Assembly (NCBI GenBank): GCA_030647485.1
Contig: JAUSJT010000004.1
Coordinates: forward strand, 109,088 to 173,087
Direction of reading: 5' to 3'
Source: a bacterium
GTDB lineage: Bacteria; Patescibacteriota; Minisyncoccia; Minisyncoccales; UBA10102
DNA length: 64,000 nucleotides
Shown here: one piece after another, positions 8,115 to 41,115 of the stretch
Position numbering within the stretch: position 1 is the stretch's first letter
Layout of the letters: every line of letters starts with the position of its first letter
Made by a program: the position numbers and the translations under genes
The notes under the pieces: model-generated
The model's database searches: none
What the model saw: only the letters and a program-made list of their open reading frames with translations
What the model was told of the DNA's origin: nothing

Positions 8115-8125
8115 CTCTTTCTATG

Positions 8126-8277
8126 CCCCGTACGAAATTTACACAGGCATAGTCACGCGAAGCGCGAGGGGCGAATAGCCCCATCCTTTCATGGGCGCAG
8201 CGCTTCGCCAATGACAGCATGCACCTATTCGGTGCGCGCACTGCGCAATGTAATAATATGGTAAATTTCTAACGGGG
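8126..8277 (+). mobile_element. 152-bp TIR element, copy A (non-coding relative of the GIY-YIG element)
   Basis: CCCCGTACGAAATTTAC...GTAAATTTCTAACGGGG termini, flanked by TATG on both sides; near-identical to 38754-38905 and 40729-40880. Confidence 0.75.
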
Positions 8278-8278
8278 T

Positions 8279-9022
8279 ATGCATATATCGCTACGGCCAG
8301 AAATTATTGGAACACTCTTTGGCATTCCCATTACCAACAGCTTGATTCTTTCTCTTATAACCGCTTTTCTTCTTGTTGGAGGCGGTTTTTTGCTTGCGCG
8401 TTCTTTGCGGATGATCCCAGGAAAAGCGCAAAATGCCATTGAAACGCTCCTGGAAGGAATCCTCGCCTTCATGGGCCAGACATTAGGGAATAAAGAGCAA
8501 GCGAAGAAATTCTTTCCTCTTGTAGCCACCATATTCTTGTTTATCCTGTTTAATAATTGGATCGGGGTGCTTCCTGGAACCGGGTCTCTGGGATTTTTTG
8601 AAGAAAACCAAGGAGTAAGAACATTTGTTCCTTTGTTTCGTTCTGCGAACAGCGATCTCAATACCACGTTTGCCCTAGCTTTAATCTCCATGGCCGCCAT
8701 TCAGTGGTATGGAATACGAAAGCTGGGGTTCTTGCGCCATATCTCCAAGTTTCTCGTGTTCACCAAGGGCCCGATTGATTTCTTCGTGGGGATATTGGAG
8801 TTGATAGGAGAGTTCGCAAAGATTCTGTCATTCTCGTTTAGGCTATTTGGCAACATATTCGCAGGAGAGGTGCTCCTCATTATTATCATGGCCTTAGTGC
8901 CGGTCATAGTGCCCCTTCCTTTTATCATGCTGGAATTCTTTGTAGGCTTTATTCAGGCCTTGGTTTTTGCTATGCTTACGTTGATATTCTTGAAAATAGC
9001 AACAGCTGAGGTCGAGCATTAG
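8279..9022 (+). CDS. atpB: F0F1 ATP synthase subunit a
   Basis: 247 aa polytopic; ...FSFRLFGNIFAGEVLL... signature. Confidence 0.9.
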   Translation: MHISLRPEIIGTLFGIPITNSLILSLITAFLLVGGGFLLARSLRMIPGKAQNAIETLLEGILAFMGQTLGNKEQAKKFFPLVATIFLFILFNNWIGVLPGTGSLGFFEENQGVRTFVPLFRSANSDLNTTFALALISMAAIQWYGIRKLGFLRHISKFLVFTKGPIDFFVGILELIGEFAKILSFSFRLFGNIFAGEVLLIIIMALVPVIVPLPFIMLEFFVGFIQALVFAMLTLIFLKIATAEVEH

Positions 9023-14440: not shown

Positions 14441-14851
14441 ATGACACAGCATGTTCAATGCCCGGCAGTAGTTGTTCATTGCATGGACTTTAGGTTCAGA
14501 GGGTTCCTGAACAGGCATTTTGATGAGCGTTTTCCCGAAGGATATGATTTAGTATCTCTTGCAGGGGGTATTAAATCACTCATCGAAGACGGCCAAATCG
14601 ATAACTTTGAGTTAAGGCAATTGCAGCTTTCAGATCGTCTGCATCACCCGTCCGTAATCGTACTTGTGCAGCATGAGGACTGCGGTGCATACGGTGGGAG
14701 CAAAGGATTTCAAGAAGCTGACCAGGAACTCAACTTCCAAGGTCAAGAACTTGCAAAGGCAAAAATCCTGTTACAAGAGCAGTTGCCGAATCACAAGATC
14801 GAAACCTACTTTATCCGATTGTCAGGCGAAATGGTCTCTCTGCCGGGCTGA
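14441..14851 (+). CDS. beta-carbonic-anhydrase-like small protein
   Basis: 136 aa; CxDxR (HCMDFRF) and HxxC (QHEDCGAYGG) motifs in beta-CA order. Confidence 0.5.
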   Translation: MTQHVQCPAVVVHCMDFRFRGFLNRHFDERFPEGYDLVSLAGGIKSLIEDGQIDNFELRQLQLSDRLHHPSVIVLVQHEDCGAYGGSKGFQEADQELNFQGQELAKAKILLQEQLPNHKIETYFIRLSGEMVSLPG

Positions 14852-14866
14852 AGCCCCCGGCTTTTT
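14842..14866 (+). terminator. intrinsic terminator
   Basis: GCCGGG-ctgaagcc-CCCGGC followed by TTTTT. Confidence 0.7.
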
Positions 14867-14869
14867 CTT

Positions 14870-14898
14870 TTGACAGGAGGTTTTGAAGGGGATATAAT
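14870..14898 (+). promoter_or_regulatory. consensus sigma70 promoter of the micro-ORF unit
   Basis: TTGACA-17 nt-TATAAT, 7 nt to ATG 14906. Confidence 0.7.
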
Positions 14899-14905
14899 AC
14901 ACGAT

Positions 14906-14956
14906 ATGAAAAACACATGCCCCACGTGTGGCAAGGACACTTGTACTGGTTGTTAA
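14906..14956 (+). CDS. 16-aa four-cysteine micropeptide candidate (MKNTCPTCGKDTCTGC)
   Basis: ATG...TAA between a consensus promoter and an intrinsic terminator; CxxC-x5-CxxC; too short for the ORF track. Confidence 0.45.
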   Translation: MKNTCPTCGKDTCTGC

Positions 14957-14977
14957 GCGGTCACGCCACCTCATCAC

Positions 14978-15010
14978 AAAACACCCTCTCTGGAGAGTGT
15001 TTTGTTTTCT
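14978..15010 (+). terminator. intrinsic terminator
   Basis: AAACACCCTCTC-tg-GAGAGTGTTT imperfect hairpin followed by TGTTTTCT. Confidence 0.6.
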
Positions 15011-15028
15011 GCAAGAGACGCCGCATAG

Positions 15029-15055
15029 GTAAAACTTAATTCCATTAAGTTTTAC
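15029..15055. promoter_or_regulatory. perfect 12-bp-arm palindrome abutting the -35 box (operator candidate)
   Basis: GTAAAACTTAAT-tcc-ATTAAGTTTTAC, ends 4 nt before TTGACG at 15060. Confidence 0.45.
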
Positions 15056-15059
15056 AATT

Positions 15060-15088
15060 TTGACGGGAGAATATGGGAAAGGTATAAT
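15060..15088 (+). promoter_or_regulatory. sigma70-type promoter (leaderless-type spacing)
   Basis: TTGACG-17 nt-TATAAT, 6 nt to ATG 15095. Confidence 0.65.
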
Positions 15089-15094
15089 ATTCCT

Positions 15095-15331
15095 ATGCCA
15101 AAAGTTATTATCTATAGCACGCCTTACTGCGTGTATTGCAAAGCAGCAAAAGAATTCTTCCAGGAACACGGAGTTAAGTATGAGGAAAAAGATGTGGCAA
15201 ATGATGAAGAGGCAAGAGAGCGTATGATTCATAAATCAGGCCAGCTTGGGGTCCCCGTTATTGAGATTGGTGACGAGGTTGTTGTTGGATTTGATAAAAA
15301 GAGGTTAGCAGTATTGCTTGCAATAAGATAA
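15095..15331 (+). CDS. glutaredoxin/NrdH-like thiol-disulfide oxidoreductase
   Basis: 78 aa; VIIYSTPYCVYCKAAKEFF (CxxC), ...GQLGVPVIEIGDEVVVGFD. Confidence 0.85.
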   Translation: MPKVIIYSTPYCVYCKAAKEFFQEHGVKYEEKDVANDEEARERMIHKSGQLGVPVIEIGDEVVVGFDKKRLAVLLAIR

Positions 15332-17630: not shown

Positions 17631-18554
17631 ATGACGTATGATCTTGTTATCGTGGGGTCGGGGGCTGCGGGGTTGTCTGCGGCCTTGTACGCGAGAAGAT
17701 ATAACATGAATACTCTTGTGTTTGAGGGTGAGTTTGGAGGGGAAACGGCAACCGCAGGAAAGATTGAGAACTACCCTGGCATTATGTCTGTTGATGGGTA
17801 TGATTTAATGAAAACCATGAAAGAACAAGGGAAAGTTCTTGGGGTTCAGTTCTTGGAAGAGAGAGTGCAAAAGATTGAGCGCCAGGAAGCATATTTTCTT
17901 GTGACAGGAGAGAAGGAGACGTTCCAAGCAAAAGCCATTATCTTGGCCATAGGATCCCAAAGAAGGCATTTGGGTCTTTCCAAGGAGCAGGAGCTTACCG
18001 GGCGGGGCGTGCACTACTGCGTAACCTGCGACGGCCCCGTATTCGCGGGCAAGACCGTTGCCATGGTTGGGGGAGGGGATTCTTCTGTAAAGGGAGTGAA
18101 CTTTCTGGGAGAATACGCGCAGAAGATTTATTTCATTGTCCGTGGTAAAGAGATTGTTGCTGAATTTATAAACCTTGCCCAGATGAAGAAACTTGGAGAC
18201 AAGGTAGAGGTGTTGTTAGAAACAGAAGTGAAAGAACTGGTAGGGGATAAGATGCTCGAGAAAGTCGTTCTTTCAAAAGCATATAAGGGATCTGCGGAGC
18301 TTGCCTTAGACGGCATGTTTGTTGAGGTTGGATATGACCCCGATCAAACATTCGTAAAGCAGCTTGGTCTCCAAGTGGATGAAGCGGGATACACAAAAGC
18401 AGACAATATGATGTGCACCAATATTCCTGGGGTTTTTGCCGCAGGAGATTCAACCAATCATTTTGGGAGATTTAAGCAAGATATTACCGCCGCGGCCTTG
18501 GGAGCTGTTGCGGCAACTTCTGCGTACGAGTATAATACAATCTATGGACAATAA
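17631..18554 (+). CDS. trxB: thioredoxin-disulfide reductase
   Basis: 307 aa; VIVGSGAAGLSAA, redox-active CVTCDG, GGGDSS. Confidence 0.9.
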   Translation: MTYDLVIVGSGAAGLSAALYARRYNMNTLVFEGEFGGETATAGKIENYPGIMSVDGYDLMKTMKEQGKVLGVQFLEERVQKIERQEAYFLVTGEKETFQAKAIILAIGSQRRHLGLSKEQELTGRGVHYCVTCDGPVFAGKTVAMVGGGDSSVKGVNFLGEYAQKIYFIVRGKEIVAEFINLAQMKKLGDKVEVLLETEVKELVGDKMLEKVVLSKAYKGSAELALDGMFVEVGYDPDQTFVKQLGLQVDEAGYTKADNMMCTNIPGVFAAGDSTNHFGRFKQDITAAALGAVAATSAYEYNTIYGQ

Positions 18555-19236
18555 ATTTGCTATTCCAGGAGCAATCCTGGCAGGCGCCCTCATTATCGCA
18601 GGAGCAGTAGTATACGGAGATGATATTAGGGAAAGGATGCAGCCGGGGAATACGCCTAGCGTAAGAGAGCAGAGGGGTGATACCCTTGTTGTTCCTACCC
18701 TTGATGTTGCTGTAGCTGCTTCTGACCATATCCGAGGGAACGTGAATGCCCAAATTACCATTGTGGAGTATTCGGATTTGGAATGCACGTTCTGCAAGAG
18801 ATTCCATGAGACTATGAATCAGGTACTTGCAGTGTATGGAGACAAGGTACGCTGGGTATACAGGCATTTCCCCTTAGACCAAATACATACGAAGGCAGAT
18901 AAAGAAGCAGAGGCTGCAGAGTGCGCAGGGGAATTGGGAGGAAACGATGCGTTCTGGGCGTATATTGATAAGATATTTGAAATTACTCCTTCCAATAACG
19001 GATTGGATCTTGCCTTATTGCCTCAAATTGCTCAGGATATGGGTTTGGATAAGGGAAAGTTTGAATCCTGTCTGTCATCAGGAAAATATGCCGAGCTTGT
19101 AGAAGCACAATTTCAGGAAGGAATGAGATTGGGAGTGAACGGAACTCCAGGAAGCTTTATAAACGGTCAACCCGTTCGCGGAGCAGTTCCTTTTGAGGCG
19201 CTTAAGGGCATGATTGACGATCAATTAGCGAAATAG
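18544..19236 (+). CDS. DsbA-like thioredoxin-fold protein with N-terminal membrane anchor
   Basis: ATG 18544 (MDNKFAIPGAILAGALIIAG...); CTFC active site in ...VEYSDLECTFCKRFH; the upstream part of ORF 18436 overlaps trxB. Confidence 0.8.
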   Translation: MDNKFAIPGAILAGALIIAGAVVYGDDIRERMQPGNTPSVREQRGDTLVVPTLDVAVAASDHIRGNVNAQITIVEYSDLECTFCKRFHETMNQVLAVYGDKVRWVYRHFPLDQIHTKADKEAEAAECAGELGGNDAFWAYIDKIFEITPSNNGLDLALLPQIAQDMGLDKGKFESCLSSGKYAELVEAQFQEGMRLGVNGTPGSFINGQPVRGAVPFEALKGMIDDQLAK

Positions 19237-19237
19237 G

Positions 19238-19930
19238 ATGAGAAGGTTTCTTGTTATTTCTCCTCATCCTGACGATGTGGACTTTTCGTGCGCTGGAACC
19301 ATAGCTAAGCTTGTAAAAGAGGGGAATCAGGTAGAAGAGCTTATCGTTTCAGACGGATCTAAAGGAAGCCATGCGGTAGGGTTTGGAGGCAAGAAGCTTG
19401 CAGGGTTGAGGAAAAAAGAACAGAGGAATGCGGGAAAGGTCCTGGGCGTAGCAGATGTTTCTTTCCTTAGTGAAACAGACGGAGAAGTGGAGAATACGAG
19501 AAATCTGCGGAAGAAACTTGTTGTCTTTATGCGGCAAAGAAAACCCGATGTGGTAATGTGTCCAGAGCCATTCTTGTTTCGTTTTGATAGGGCAGGGATT
19601 CTTCATAGAGATCATAGAAATACTGGAGAGGCGGTATTTGATGCGGTGTATCCTGCGGTAGGGAACGCATCATTCTTCCCCGAGCTTTTAAAGAAGAATC
19701 TTAAACCGCATAACGTGCAAGAGTTTTGGTTCTGGGGATCTTCAAAGCCCCAGCTTATTATTGATATATCAAAAACAATAGAGCAGAAGATCCAGGCTCT
19801 TTTCTGTCATAAGAGCCAGATACGAGACATGGAGGCTTTAGAATTGAGAATCAAGGAGTGGGCAAGAACCATGGGAAAGAAAAAGCACATGCGGTACGCA
19901 GAAGCCTTCCGAGTATTGAAGCTGGGATAA
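19238..19930 (+). CDS. PIG-L/LmbE-family deacetylase
   Basis: 230 aa; VISPHPDDVDFSCAGT, ...HRDHRNTGEAV... Confidence 0.8.
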   Translation: MRRFLVISPHPDDVDFSCAGTIAKLVKEGNQVEELIVSDGSKGSHAVGFGGKKLAGLRKKEQRNAGKVLGVADVSFLSETDGEVENTRNLRKKLVVFMRQRKPDVVMCPEPFLFRFDRAGILHRDHRNTGEAVFDAVYPAVGNASFFPELLKKNLKPHNVQEFWFWGSSKPQLIIDISKTIEQKIQALFCHKSQIRDMEALELRIKEWARTMGKKKHMRYAEAFRVLKLG

Positions 19931-20061: not shown

Positions 20062-20226
20062 ATGGCAACTGAAGGATATTGTGTAAAGTGCAAGGCAAAG
20101 AGAGACATGACTGGCGAAAAAGAGGTAGCAATGAAGGGAAAGGGCGGAAAGACAAGAAGAGCTATGACCGGCACCTGCCCAAAGTGCGGAACCAAGATGT
20201 TCCGAATTCTAGGGAACAAGAAATAG
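20062..20226 (+). CDS. small zinc-ribbon protein (DUF5679-like)
   Basis: 54 aa MATEGYCVKCKAKRDM...GTCPKCGTKMFRILG; CxxC...CxxC; below the ORF-track size cutoff; followed by a terminator. Confidence 0.65.
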   Translation: MATEGYCVKCKAKRDMTGEKEVAMKGKGGKTRRAMTGTCPKCGTKMFRILGNKK

Positions 20227-32312: not shown

Positions 32313-32522
32313 ATGGATTTCAACGAAATCAAGAATTTAATACAGCAGGAAGGCGGGAAAATCATTGTAGTGGAGAATGGGAAACCCGTTATGGTCGTCC
32401 TGTCTTTTGAAGACTTTAAGGCAAGGAATGCCAAGAAGGTACAGGCGCAAACTCCTGTTCCGTTTCCTCAAGAAGAGTTGCAGGGCGAGGAGGAATTGAC
32501 AATTGATGATTTGCCGCTATAA
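32313..32522 (+). CDS. Phd/YefM-like antitoxin-fold protein, no cognate toxin adjacent
   Basis: 69 aa; ...GGKIIVVENGKPVMVVLSFEDFKA... matches the Phd/YefM core; acidic C-terminal tail. Confidence 0.55.
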   Translation: MDFNEIKNLIQQEGGKIIVVENGKPVMVVLSFEDFKARNAKKVQAQTPVPFPQEELQGEEELTIDDLPL

Positions 32523-38747: not shown

Positions 38748-38753
38748 CCTATG

Positions 38754-38905
38754 CCCCGTATGAAATTTACAAAGGTCTATACACGCGAAGCGCGAGGGGC
38801 GAATAGCCCCATCCTTTCATGGGCGCAGCGCTTCGCCAATGACAGCATGCACCTATTCGGTGCGCGCGCTGCGCTTTATAATAATATGGTAAATTTCTAA
38901 CGGGG
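38754..38905 (+). mobile_element. 152-bp TIR element, copy B (rpsS-rplV junction)
   Basis: Flanked by TATG 38750-38753 and 38906-38909; termini CCCCGTATGAAATTTAC / GTAAATTTCTAACGGGG. Confidence 0.75.
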
Positions 38906-38906
38906 T

Positions 38907-39419
38907 ATGCAAACATTGATGAGGTTACAACGAATACGAATTGCGCCCAGAAAGATGAGAATGGTTATTGATCTGGTGCGAGGAAAGAAAGTTGCTCTTG
39001 CAAGGGATGTGTTGCGTTTTAAGACAAACAAGGGAGCTAGGATTCTTTCAAAGCTTCTAGACTCTGCGATTGCGACAGCCAAGTCATTGGGACAGGGAGA
39101 CGAGTCAAATCTTATGGTATTGAAAATAGCAGTGGACGAGGGTCCAAAGTTAAAACGCTGGAGAGCTCGGGCTAAAGGATCAGCCTATGAAATCCAAAAG
39201 AAAGTTTCTCACATTACGCTTATCTTAGACGAGGTGAAGGGTGCAAAATCCGCATCAGTATCCAGGAAAGAGATAAAAACAGGACAAGAAGCTGTGAAGA
39301 AAGATCAAGTTGCGATAAAGACAGAAAAGCCTAAGTTTAAGGCTGTATCTAGCGAGCTCAAGACTTCAAGGACTGAAAAAGGAGTTCAGAGATTCTTTAG
39401 GAAATCAGGAGAAAAGTAG
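38907..39419 (+). CDS. rplV: 50S ribosomal protein L22 with Lys-rich C-terminal extension
   Basis: 170 aa; ...RIAPRKMRMVIDLVRGKKVALARDVLRF..., ...RWRARAKGSAYEIQKKVSHITLIL. Confidence 0.93.
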   Translation: MQTLMRLQRIRIAPRKMRMVIDLVRGKKVALARDVLRFKTNKGARILSKLLDSAIATAKSLGQGDESNLMVLKIAVDEGPKLKRWRARAKGSAYEIQKKVSHITLILDEVKGAKSASVSRKEIKTGQEAVKKDQVAIKTEKPKFKAVSSELKTSRTEKGVQRFFRKSGEK

Positions 39420-40558: not shown

Positions 40559-40738
40559 ATGAACATCGCTGAACTGCGGCAAAAATCAAAAGGGGAGTTG
40601 CAGGAGTTCCTTCAAGGGCAGAAAGAAACACTGCGTCAACTTAGGTTTGATCTTGCTGCGGGAAAAGTAAAAAACGTGCGTCAGATAAGACAATTGAAAA
40701 AAACAATAGCACAAATACTAACCGTATGCCCCGTATGA
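40559..40738 (+). CDS. rpmC: 50S ribosomal protein L29 (stop codon supplied by the inserted element)
   Basis: 59 aa MNIAELRQKSKGELQEFLQGQKETLRQLRFDLAAGKVKNVRQIRQLKKTIAQILTVCPV*; below the ORF-track cutoff. Confidence 0.88.
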   Translation: MNIAELRQKSKGELQEFLQGQKETLRQLRFDLAAGKVKNVRQIRQLKKTIAQILTVCPV

Positions 40739-40880
40739 AATTTACAAAGGTCTATACACGCGAAGCGCGAGTGGCGAATAGCCACATCCATACAGGGGCG
40801 CAGCGCTTCGCCAATGACAGTATGCACCTATTCGGTGCGCGCACTGCGCTATGTAATAATATGGTAAATTTCTAACGGGG
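40729..40880 (+). mobile_element. 152-bp TIR element, copy C (rpmC-rpsQ junction)
   Basis: Flanked by TATG 40725-40728 and 40881-40884; carries the compensatory GTGGC...GCCAC variant of the GGGGC...GCCCC hairpin. Confidence 0.75.
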
Positions 40881-40881
40881 T

Positions 40882-41115
40882 ATGCCCAAAAAACAATTAA
40901 CTGGCATTGTGGTGTCAGACAAAATGCAAAAGACCATTGTGGTAGAGGTTGAACAATGGCATGTGAACTCAAAGTACAAGAGGAGATTTCGCATGCACAA
41001 AAAGTACAAAGCCCATGATGAGAAAGGAGAATACAAAATAGGAGACACGGTTGTTATTGAGGAATCAGTCCCTATTTCAAAAGATAAGAAGTGGAGAGTT
41101 ATTTCCAAGGCGTAA
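40882..41115 (+). CDS. rpsQ: 30S ribosomal protein S17
   Basis: 77 aa; ...LTGIVVSDKMQKTIVVEVE...HKKYKAHDE...GDTVVIEESVPISK. Confidence 0.95.
   Translation: MPKKQLTGIVVSDKMQKTIVVEVEQWHVNSKYKRRFRMHKKYKAHDEKGEYKIGDTVVIEESVPISKDKKWRVISKA

Follow-up and report, generated by a model that had tools for sequence, protein, structure and literature searches.

Gene callers are blind to genes of 15–16 codons, and the locus described here raises the question of whether a reading frame of that size can be a genuine gene and, if so, what its product might do. The locus occupies positions 14870–15009 of a 64-kb stretch of DNA (the window) from an uncultivated groundwater bacterium of the Patescibacteria (Candidate Phyla Radiation, CPR) with a very small genome. 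An earlier note on this DNA (the original prediction) had read it as a transcription unit of its own, encoding a peptide with four cysteines and lying next to thiol-redox genes. Here, we report that relatives keep the unit as a whole, with its promoter, terminator, reading frame, length and all four cysteines, and that the peptide is under purifying selection. Comparative evidence thus reveals selection on a gene of this size in an uncultivated CPR lineage, in whose very small genomes every retained gene is informative. The product stands for a family of micro-proteins, extremely short, rich in Cys and so far unannotated, that is clearly real and conserved and for which we propose a function in metal-thiolate or redox chemistry; longer Cys/His-rich peptides of related loci are likely members of a wider set.

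Anatomy of the micro-gene unit

The unit measures 140 nt from the −35 hexamer to the end of the terminator and would give a transcript of about 103 nt; the figure of about 110 nt given originally for the whole unit is corrected accordingly. The promoter (TTGACA-17-TATAAT, 7 nt from the ATG), the open reading frame (ORF) and the intrinsic terminator all lie exactly where they had been placed.

14870–14875, + strand: −35 hexamer TTGACA; promoter score 12/12; TTGACA is invariant in all nine homologous units
14876–14892, + strand: promoter spacer GGAGGTTTTGAAGGGGA, 17 nt, purine-rich
14893–14898, + strand: −10 hexamer TATAAT; TATAAT, TATACT or TACAAT in relatives, with the distance unchanged
Between the −10 hexamer and the ATG at 14906, + strand: gap ACACGAT, 7 nt
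14906–14956, + strand: micro-gene, 16 codons and TAA, product MKNTCPTCGKDTCTGC
14957–14975, + strand: 3′ untranslated spacer GCGGTCACGCCACCTCATC, from the stop codon to the terminator
14976–15009, + strand: intrinsic terminator; hairpin at 14976–15005 (ACAAAACACCCTCTCTGGAGAGTGTTTTGT), −12.6 kcal/mol, followed by TTTC

The micro-gene reads ATG AAA AAC ACA TGC CCC ACG TGT GGC AAG GAC ACT TGT ACT GGT TGT TAA. Its cysteines, C5, C8, C13 and C16, are arranged as CxxC-x4-CxxC around the linker G K D T, so that the CxxC-x5-CxxC spacing originally given was one residue too long. A search for the exact composite TTGACA-N17-TATAAT-N7-ATG gives a single match in the window and no match in 100 shuffles, and only two promoters in the 64 kb score 12/12: that of the micro-gene and one at 32496. 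The terminator is absent from a simple terminator scan because its stem is bulged and its U-run lies partly inside the stem.

Homologous units and evidence for coding

Relatives were gathered from contigs with homologues of the upstream neighbour (Pro_CA_2), from 80 Pro_CA_2-anchored GTDB loci, from a degenerate-pattern scan of JGI metagenomes that was not anchored to any neighbour, and from contigs with close relatives of the downstream glutaredoxin (Grx, gene grx). Loci carry L numbers. Nine distinct full-length sequences, including that of the window, were found in Wildermuthbacteria-like genomes and in metagenomes and are referred to as type A; one more copy is cut off by a contig end (L001).

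Window: MKNTCPTCGKDTCTGC
L088: MKDNCPTCGKDPCTC
L091, L102–L104, L106 and L107: MKDKCPTCGKDPCAC
L012: MKDTCPTCGKDPCTC
L007, L087 and L092: MKDKCPKCGQDPCACS
L095: MKDMCPTCGNDTCTGC
L101 and L105: MKDQCPTCGNDPCTC
L108–L110: MIITCPKCGSETCKGC
L119 and L120: MIITCPSCGSETCKGC

The consensus is M-x-x-x-C-P-x-C-G-x-[DE]-x-C-x-(G)-C, in which C-P-x-C-G is invariant and is joined by a C-terminal CxC or CxxC pair in 9/9 peptides. All nine units have the same build: TTGACA, a spacer of 16–17 nt, a gap of 6–7 nt, 15–16 codons and a hairpin terminator with a U-run. Since the flanking proteins have diverged far (the Grx proteins of type A genomes are 58–89% identical to that of the window, and the Pro_CA_2 proteins 52–86%), the unit has survived substantial divergence. 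The true hits of the unanchored JGI scan all fall in the Pro_CA_2/Grx neighbourhood, with L088 and L091 beside grx and those of the L007 type beside Pro_CA_2. Other pattern hits were rejected as unrelated: L085, L089, L090 and L094 are longer ORFs or stand in other contexts, and a 22-aa ORF, MKK[PT]CPCCGCDPCDCDWGNRKE, in L086 (1081–1149) and L093 (5724–5792) lies on low-GC, phage-like contigs with a ThyX-like neighbour.

Codon statistics were computed for eight of the homologues, with L119 left out. By minimum count, substitutions fall on codon positions 1:2:3 in the proportion 5:7:19 (binomial P=0.0013), and the pooled ratio of non-synonymous to synonymous change (pN/pS) is 0.25, with synonymous sites near saturation. 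The Cys codons interchange between TGT and TGC only, P6 and G9 are invariant, position 11 is always D or E, and the sole indel is a whole codon, GGT. Only in frame +1 does a start codon go with a stop whose position is conserved; stops are scattered through the other frames and the reverse strand. The codon-position bias, the low pN/pS, the behaviour of the Cys codons and the whole-codon indel argue that the unit is protein-coding and does not merely contain an incidental ORF. On these comparative grounds we regard it as highly probable that this is a micro-gene under purifying selection. The comparison of the frame in relatives, which the original prediction had proposed as its own check, thus gave a substitution pattern of the coding type, and loss of the frame or of the cysteines behind a kept promoter and terminator was not seen.

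Probable leaderless expression

In relatives, the gap between the −10 hexamer and the ATG is 6 nt in L001 and 7 nt in the others. The same arrangement, with TATAAT 6–7 nt before the ATG, also precedes undoubted genes of the window, namely grx (15095) and the genes of a 612-aa protein (50890) and a 216-aa protein (26782, − strand), and a Shine–Dalgarno (SD) sequence is missing from most window genes. The micro-gene shares its promoter-to-ATG geometry with real genes of its genome, and from this geometry alone its mRNA is probably leaderless. It would provide a clean case of inferred leaderless expression outside Actinobacteria and Deinococcus.

The spacer of the promoter is also purine-rich, and AGGAGTTTTGAGGGG-like, in L007, L012, L088, L101, L108 and L119, so that distant relatives share it too. 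Within the window it is partly resembled by the grx promoter and by no other promoter. This conserved AGGAGTTTTGAGGGG-like spacer may be the site of a regulator.

Longer Cys/His-rich peptides of related loci

Other relatives carry, beside grx, unannotated Cys/His-rich peptides of 26–49 aa with the motif CxxCGHxH..GEDGxCECGCG, which we term type B.

L004, 3065–3154: MFTAENTGVTCAACGHEHGEDGTCECGCG; directly after grx
L010, 6740–6832: MREEIKAQTTCTVCGHEHGEDGKCECGCGE; directly after grx
L013, 8125–8217: MFKNEDMPSTCAGCGHEHKGEDGKCECGCG
L017, 7964–8044: MDTPTTCSMCGHKHGEDGKCECGCGG; between an ArsR gene and that of a 55-aa CxxC protein
L019, 7245–7343: MDQEIKAQGACSACSHEHEGSCSECKECSPAA; placed as type A is in L088, in the order promoter, small ORF (sORF), terminator, grx −10 element
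L116–L118 (L116, 4252–4401): 49-aa form MEDKNKDCHACHCACGMHTEHNHLTDLKKCSRCGHKHEKSDGSCECGCK, with 9 Cys and 7 His, a make-up typical of metal ligands; in L116 directly after grx

Substitutions in the type B core fall on the codon positions as 4:2:19 (P=1.6e-5), a pattern that marks the core as plainly coding. Not only Cys but also His is invariant in type B, and the conserved residues number two His and several acidic ones. The pattern C-x-x-C-G-(K/H)...D-(G)-x-C-x-C is common to types A and B, which are likely although unproven homologues; within the DNA fetched, the two were not found together at one locus.

Exact look-up showed that two 30-aa type B peptides are present, nameless, in public protein collections, and a homology search of protein databases with the 49-aa form gave no match. 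Pfam and NCBIfam contain no family for type A (searched with padded queries), for type B or for the 49-aa form. With artificially padded type A queries, Pfam returned only sub-threshold matches (Zn_ribbon_4, 16.1 bits against a cut-off of 30.3; IBR, 17.4 against 24.3). A PDB profile search returned only zinc-ribbon knuckle noise at E>0.2, with no solved structure above it for either type. For the micro-gene region Rfam gave only noise at E<=10. In the literature on small Cys-rich proteins of the CPR, CPR metallothioneins and minimal rubredoxins, we found no description of the peptide.

Gene neighbourhood

The neighbours named in the original prediction (carbonic-anhydrase-like, glutaredoxin-like, trxB, DsbA-like, PIG-L and CxxC zinc ribbon) were all confirmed.

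14441–14851, + strand: Pro_CA_2 gene (PF20393, E=4e-10), putative beta-carbonic-anhydrase-like, upstream neighbour
14842–14861, + strand: terminator hairpin of the Pro_CA_2 gene, then a T-run; listed as a terminator-like site in the scan
15060–15088, + strand: separate grx promoter TTGACG-17-TATAAT, 6 nt before the ATG at 15095
15095–15331, + strand: YruB-family glutaredoxin-like gene (grx), active site CVYC, downstream neighbour
17631–18554: TrxB-like reductase
18436–19236: DsbA-like protein
19238–19930, + strand: PIG-L deacetylase
20062–20226, + strand: 54-aa zinc ribbon (MATEGYCVKCKAKRDMTGEKEV..TGTCPKCGTKMFRILGNKK)

The micro-gene follows the Pro_CA_2 gene in the window and in L001, L007, L012, L101, L102 and L119; the Pro_CA_2 protein of the window has an identical counterpart in an NCBI metagenome-assembled bacterium, and relatives of it are found in Candidatus Wildermuthbacteria and other Patescibacteria. 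The window Grx matches PF00462 (E=1e-20) and TIGR02196 (93.3 bits, cut-off 88.55), and its gene, having its own promoter, is independent of read-through from the micro-gene. The next gene downstream is grx in the window, L088, L091, L105 and L119; elsewhere its place is taken by genes for an FMN reductase (L007), a 169-aa membrane protein (L012), an ArsR/SmtB regulator (L108) and a 101-aa protein (L095). All type A and type B genes found lie within about 1.3 kb of a grx orthologue. The partners of Grx around these loci are TrxB, DsbA-like proteins, DsbD_TM/CcdA, NADPH-producing glutamate dehydrogenase (GDH), malic enzyme and glucose-6-phosphate dehydrogenase (G6PD); genes for GDH and malic enzyme are also among the neighbours in the window.

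Several further features of this neighbourhood were recorded. Among NCBIfam models, BshB1, the bacillithiol-biosynthesis deacetylase, scores highest for the PIG-L protein, at 105.7 bits and under the cut-off of 182.5; lying beside DsbA and TrxB, this sub-cut-off match hints at a low-molecular-weight-thiol pathway. The 54-aa zinc ribbon is kept at the same position in L012, before a gene of the metallo-beta-lactamase fold, and L108 has a 54-aa gene at the same position. A conserved 55–56-aa protein with the pattern CxxC...C..C..H (MVKE..CEACGYRYETRELAEKCEAWCVAHHSCN) is encoded in L007 (7759–7926), L004 (3208–3378) and L108 (5245–5415). It stands behind an ArsR/SmtB regulator, with Grx on one side and a DsbD_TM/CcdA membrane protein on the other, and its only match, to DUF7128, is sub-threshold. 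An antisense ORF of 136 aa at 14822–15232 (− strand), which overlaps grx and is not conserved, was rejected.

Elsewhere in the window, a repeat of about 158 nt resembling a miniature inverted-repeat transposable element (MITE) occurs in three copies that are >90% identical (8123–8280, ~38751–38908 and ~40726–40883, + strand). It has 20-nt terminal inverted repeats (ATGCCCCGTACGAAATTTAC / GTAAATTTCTAACGGGGTAT) and no Rfam match. Its 3′ end supplies the ATG taken by mechanical ORF calling for the genes at 8279 and 38907, and the copy at 8123 stands 8 nt behind an 11/12 promoter (8086). At the gathering threshold, Rfam reports no family and no tRNA in the whole 64-kb window, despite its ribosomal-protein, EF-Tu and ATP-synthase operons.

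RNA structure and the 3′ untranslated region

Apart from a 4-bp stem inside the ORF, which is invariant and hence uninformative, the terminator is the sole conserved structure found by RNAalifold, with both-sided compensatory changes at 4 pairs. The hairpins of relatives stand in the same place and differ in sequence. Across type A, window included, the terminators are strong, at −12.6 to −22 kcal/mol, and 7 to 19 nt separate the stem from the stop codon. The 52 nt after the stop codon, comprising the 3′ untranslated region (UTR) and the terminator, are 92% identical between the window and its close relatives (L088, L091) and 100% identical among L088, L091, L101 and L105. Between close relatives and the window, identity is 76–78% for the ORF and 81–84% for the flanking grx and GDH genes, and there are differences in the promoter; the four relatives with the identical segment likewise differ in ORF and promoter. 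L007, L012, L095 and L108 do not keep the UTR sequence. L088, L091 and L105 have a grx promoter that overlaps the terminator, with a −35-like TTGAGA in the hairpin and TGGTATAAT directly thereafter. This overlap may explain part of the UTR conservation, but it does not account for L101.

Proposed function and alternative explanations

We propose, with moderate confidence, that the unit produces at a high level, from a leaderless mRNA, a tetrathiolate mini-knuckle that would buffer or chaperone metal, or act as a metal-stabilized redox module, and would be serviced by Grx and TrxB. In this proposal, the near-optimal sigma-70-type promoter would start transcription at or beside the A of the ATG, and the monocistronic mRNA would be translated straight from its 5′ AUG and end at the intrinsic terminator, ahead of the separately promoted glutaredoxin gene. 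The product would be a soluble peptide of 15–16 residues composed of the CPxCG knuckle, a four-residue turn made by the D/E-P/T residues, and the C-terminal CxC or CxxC pair, which would close the site. The four thiolates would form one metal-thiolate centre, within one peptide or between two; Zn(II) would be the likeliest metal, with Fe, Cu(I) or Ni possible. The neighbouring YruB-glutaredoxin/thioredoxin-reductase system would keep the cysteines reduced. A knuckle is suggested by the CPxCG motif, the invariant P, G and D/E positions, the longer Cys/His-rich relatives and the constant linkage to Grx. Furthermore, the conserved His residues of type B and the Cys/His-rich 49-aa form point to metal ligation as the selected property rather than to Cys codons as such. 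Taken on its own, metal binding by the type A peptide is a tentative assignment, which we place just short of an even call.

Several observations weigh against this proposal. About half of the related Pro_CA_2/Grx-neighbourhood loci have neither peptide type within 6 kb, so that the function would have to be dispensable or replaceable. The peptide is, to our knowledge, shorter than any characterized natural zinc-binding protein, and its four-residue linker is far shorter than that of zinc ribbons. In the initial loci, a linked ArsR/SmtB regulator (NF033788) had seemed to favour a metallothionein role; with more loci the count came down to 5/15 of those bearing a peptide versus 1/12 of those without, which is suggestive in the five loci but by our own count not significant overall. 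The better conservation of the UTR and terminator relative to the ORF hints at an extra constraint at the RNA or DNA level. Finally, sequence alone cannot distinguish metal binding from pure dithiol/disulfide chemistry.

That chemistry defines an alternative in which the peptide is metal-free and abundant, cycles between two disulfides and four thiols, and acts as a low-molecular-weight-thiol substitute or as a substrate or electron shuttle for Grx, TrxB and CcdA/DsbA. The constant linkage to a YruB-type Grx and the island of TrxB, DsbA-like, DsbD_TM/CcdA and the NADPH-producing enzymes GDH, malic enzyme and G6PD would suit such a role, the 12/12 promoter suggests the very high expression that a buffer would need, and CPxC recalls the CPYC type of active site in thiol-disulfide oxidoreductases. 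However, the invariant Gly that follows the second Cys, like the Asp/Glu-x turn, is a feature of a metal-site knuckle and not of an oxidoreductase active site, type B keeps His and acidic residues that a pure thiol buffer could do without, and 15 residues offer no thioredoxin fold to tune the redox potential; we consider the metal-free peptide rather unlikely. Short Cys-rich peptides are also common as cores of ribosomally synthesized and post-translationally modified peptides (RiPPs), and a RiPP precursor or a secreted signal or toxin was weighed for that reason. It is scarcely credible here, since no radical-SAM, YcaO or lanthipeptide synthetase, protease or exporter gene occurs within 5 kb on either side in the window or next to the homologues in L007, L012 and L108, the 15–16 residues show neither a leader/core architecture nor a signal peptide, and the neighbours are housekeeping redox enzymes.

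Two further alternatives place the function in the RNA. The size of about 100 nt, the strong promoter and the terminator are typical of a small regulatory RNA (sRNA), which might base-pair through its conserved 3′ part and contain an ORF that is incidental or one of two functions; in the clade of the window the segment after the stop codon is indeed better conserved than the ORF and the flanking genes, and its spacer contains an anti-SD-like CACCUC. Against this stand the marks of selection on the peptide listed above (codon-position bias, pN/pS, whole-codon indel, invariant Cys, Pro and Gly), the lack of a conserved UTR sequence in four loci that keep the peptide, and the lack of an Rfam match or of conserved structure beyond the terminator; the 6 matches of the CACCUC-containing UTR motif CGCCACCTCA in the window, versus 2.8 expected, do not amount to enrichment. 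We give the sRNA only a small likelihood overall: a pure sRNA is unlikely, and in one clade there may be a secondary role at the RNA or DNA level. A Cys-responsive leader peptide, in which ribosome pausing at the four Cys codons controls terminator read-through or downstream translation as in the classical trp/his leaders, would likewise fit a very short leaderless ORF with 25% Cys codons that is followed by a terminator and then by a thiol-redox gene, and it has a precedent in the mycobacterial polycysteine leaderless sORFs (10.1101/834739). Yet adjacent Cys residues occur in none of the nine type A peptides and in no type B peptide, and conservation covers P6, G9 and D/E11 besides the Cys codons. 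There is no conserved antiterminator and no consistent partner for the 5′ arm of the terminator, which in the window stays largely unpaired (pairing probability 0.17) until the 3′ arm has been made. The variable distance from stop to stem, the strong terminator in every homologue before a downstream gene that varies and has its own promoter, and the lack of cysteine-biosynthesis genes nearby also speak against attenuation, and a search under this model for reach of the ribosome into the terminator found none; such a leader is very unlikely. Among the functions offered in the original prediction, a metal- or redox-active micropeptide or mini zinc knuckle is therefore favoured, whereas the Cys-sensing leader, the RiPP precursor and the sRNA with an incidental ORF are disfavoured.

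The proposed mini-knuckle would supply a missing component of the thiol-redox system that Patescibacteria have in YruB-Grx, TrxB, CcdA and DsbA and that is poorly understood. If it does bind metal or shuttle electrons, it would lower the minimum size known for natural metal or redox proteins that stand alone. A bolder version, which we regard as a long shot, would make it the smallest natural gene-encoded redox/metal cofactor protein: a 15–16-residue 'mini-rubredoxin' or thiolate module, abundant from its consensus leaderless promoter, recycled by YruB-glutaredoxin/TrxB and replacing enzymatically made low-molecular-weight thiols or larger electron carriers that these genome-reduced organisms lack. 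The whole product is within reach of peptide synthesis, which makes the question experimentally tractable.

Comparison with known systems

The polycysteine leaderless sORFs of mycobacteria (the 'Cys ribulon') are defined by at least two consecutive Cys codons; they form the first cistron of cysteine-metabolism operons and act in cis through an RNA duplex that is disrupted by stalled ribosomes (Canestrari et al. 2020, bioRxiv 10.1101/834739). Like them, the type A gene is unannotated, leaderless by its geometry, very short and Cys-rich, and was spotted through promoter geometry and conservation. Unlike them, it has its Cys residues in CxxC/CxC pairs, conserves non-Cys residues, carries its own terminator and precedes varying genes with promoters of their own. 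Leaderless geometry is thus the one feature of four that it shares with the mycobacterial attenuators; consecutive Cys codons, the operon and the RNA duplex are absent.

Closer resemblances are found among small metal-binding proteins. The retroviral-type zinc knuckle (PF00098) is C-x2-C-x4-H-x4-C, and type A has the same spacing of the first three ligands, the Gly after the second Cys (C-x2-C-G-x3-ligand) and a minimal module of about 14 residues. Its third ligand is, however, Cys instead of His, its last ligand follows after 1–2 residues instead of 4, and it is a free peptide rather than a domain, with no match to a hidden Markov model. With metallothionein loci of the SmtA/SmtB type it has in common small Cys-rich products (also His-rich in type B) with CxxC and CxC motifs. 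An ArsR/SmtB-family regulator (NF033788) lies in the island of L004, L007, L013, L017 and L108; none is present in the window. Bacterial metallothioneins differ in holding a metal cluster, whereas the four Cys of type A would provide one metal site; type A is also 3–4 times shorter and matches no family. It recalls rubredoxin in its CPxCG knuckle, its four Cys, which could bind Fe, and the pyridine-nucleotide-disulfide oxidoreductase nearby, whereas the length of about 50 aa, the two CxxCG knuckles some 30 residues apart and the aromatic core of rubredoxin are missing.

The haloarchaeal CPxCG zinc-finger micro-proteins, such as Brz (PMC2253796), have about 55–60 aa, at least two CPxCG knuckles with a beta-hairpin between them, and flanking structure. 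Type A resembles these proteins and the zinc ribbons in being a very small stand-alone protein with a CPxCG knuckle and four Cys ligands; it differs in being bacterial (CPR), in its 15–16 aa, and in having one CPxCG, a C-terminal CxC/CxxC and a four-residue linker. Of the features of a zinc ribbon, the two Cys pairs, including CPxCG, are present, and the separation of about ten or more residues by a beta-hairpin and a profile match are absent. Although it falls outside the length, linker and profile of the known families, the type A peptide would, by analogy, work most like the haloarchaeal CPxCG micro-proteins and like single-site fragments of metallothionein or rubredoxin.

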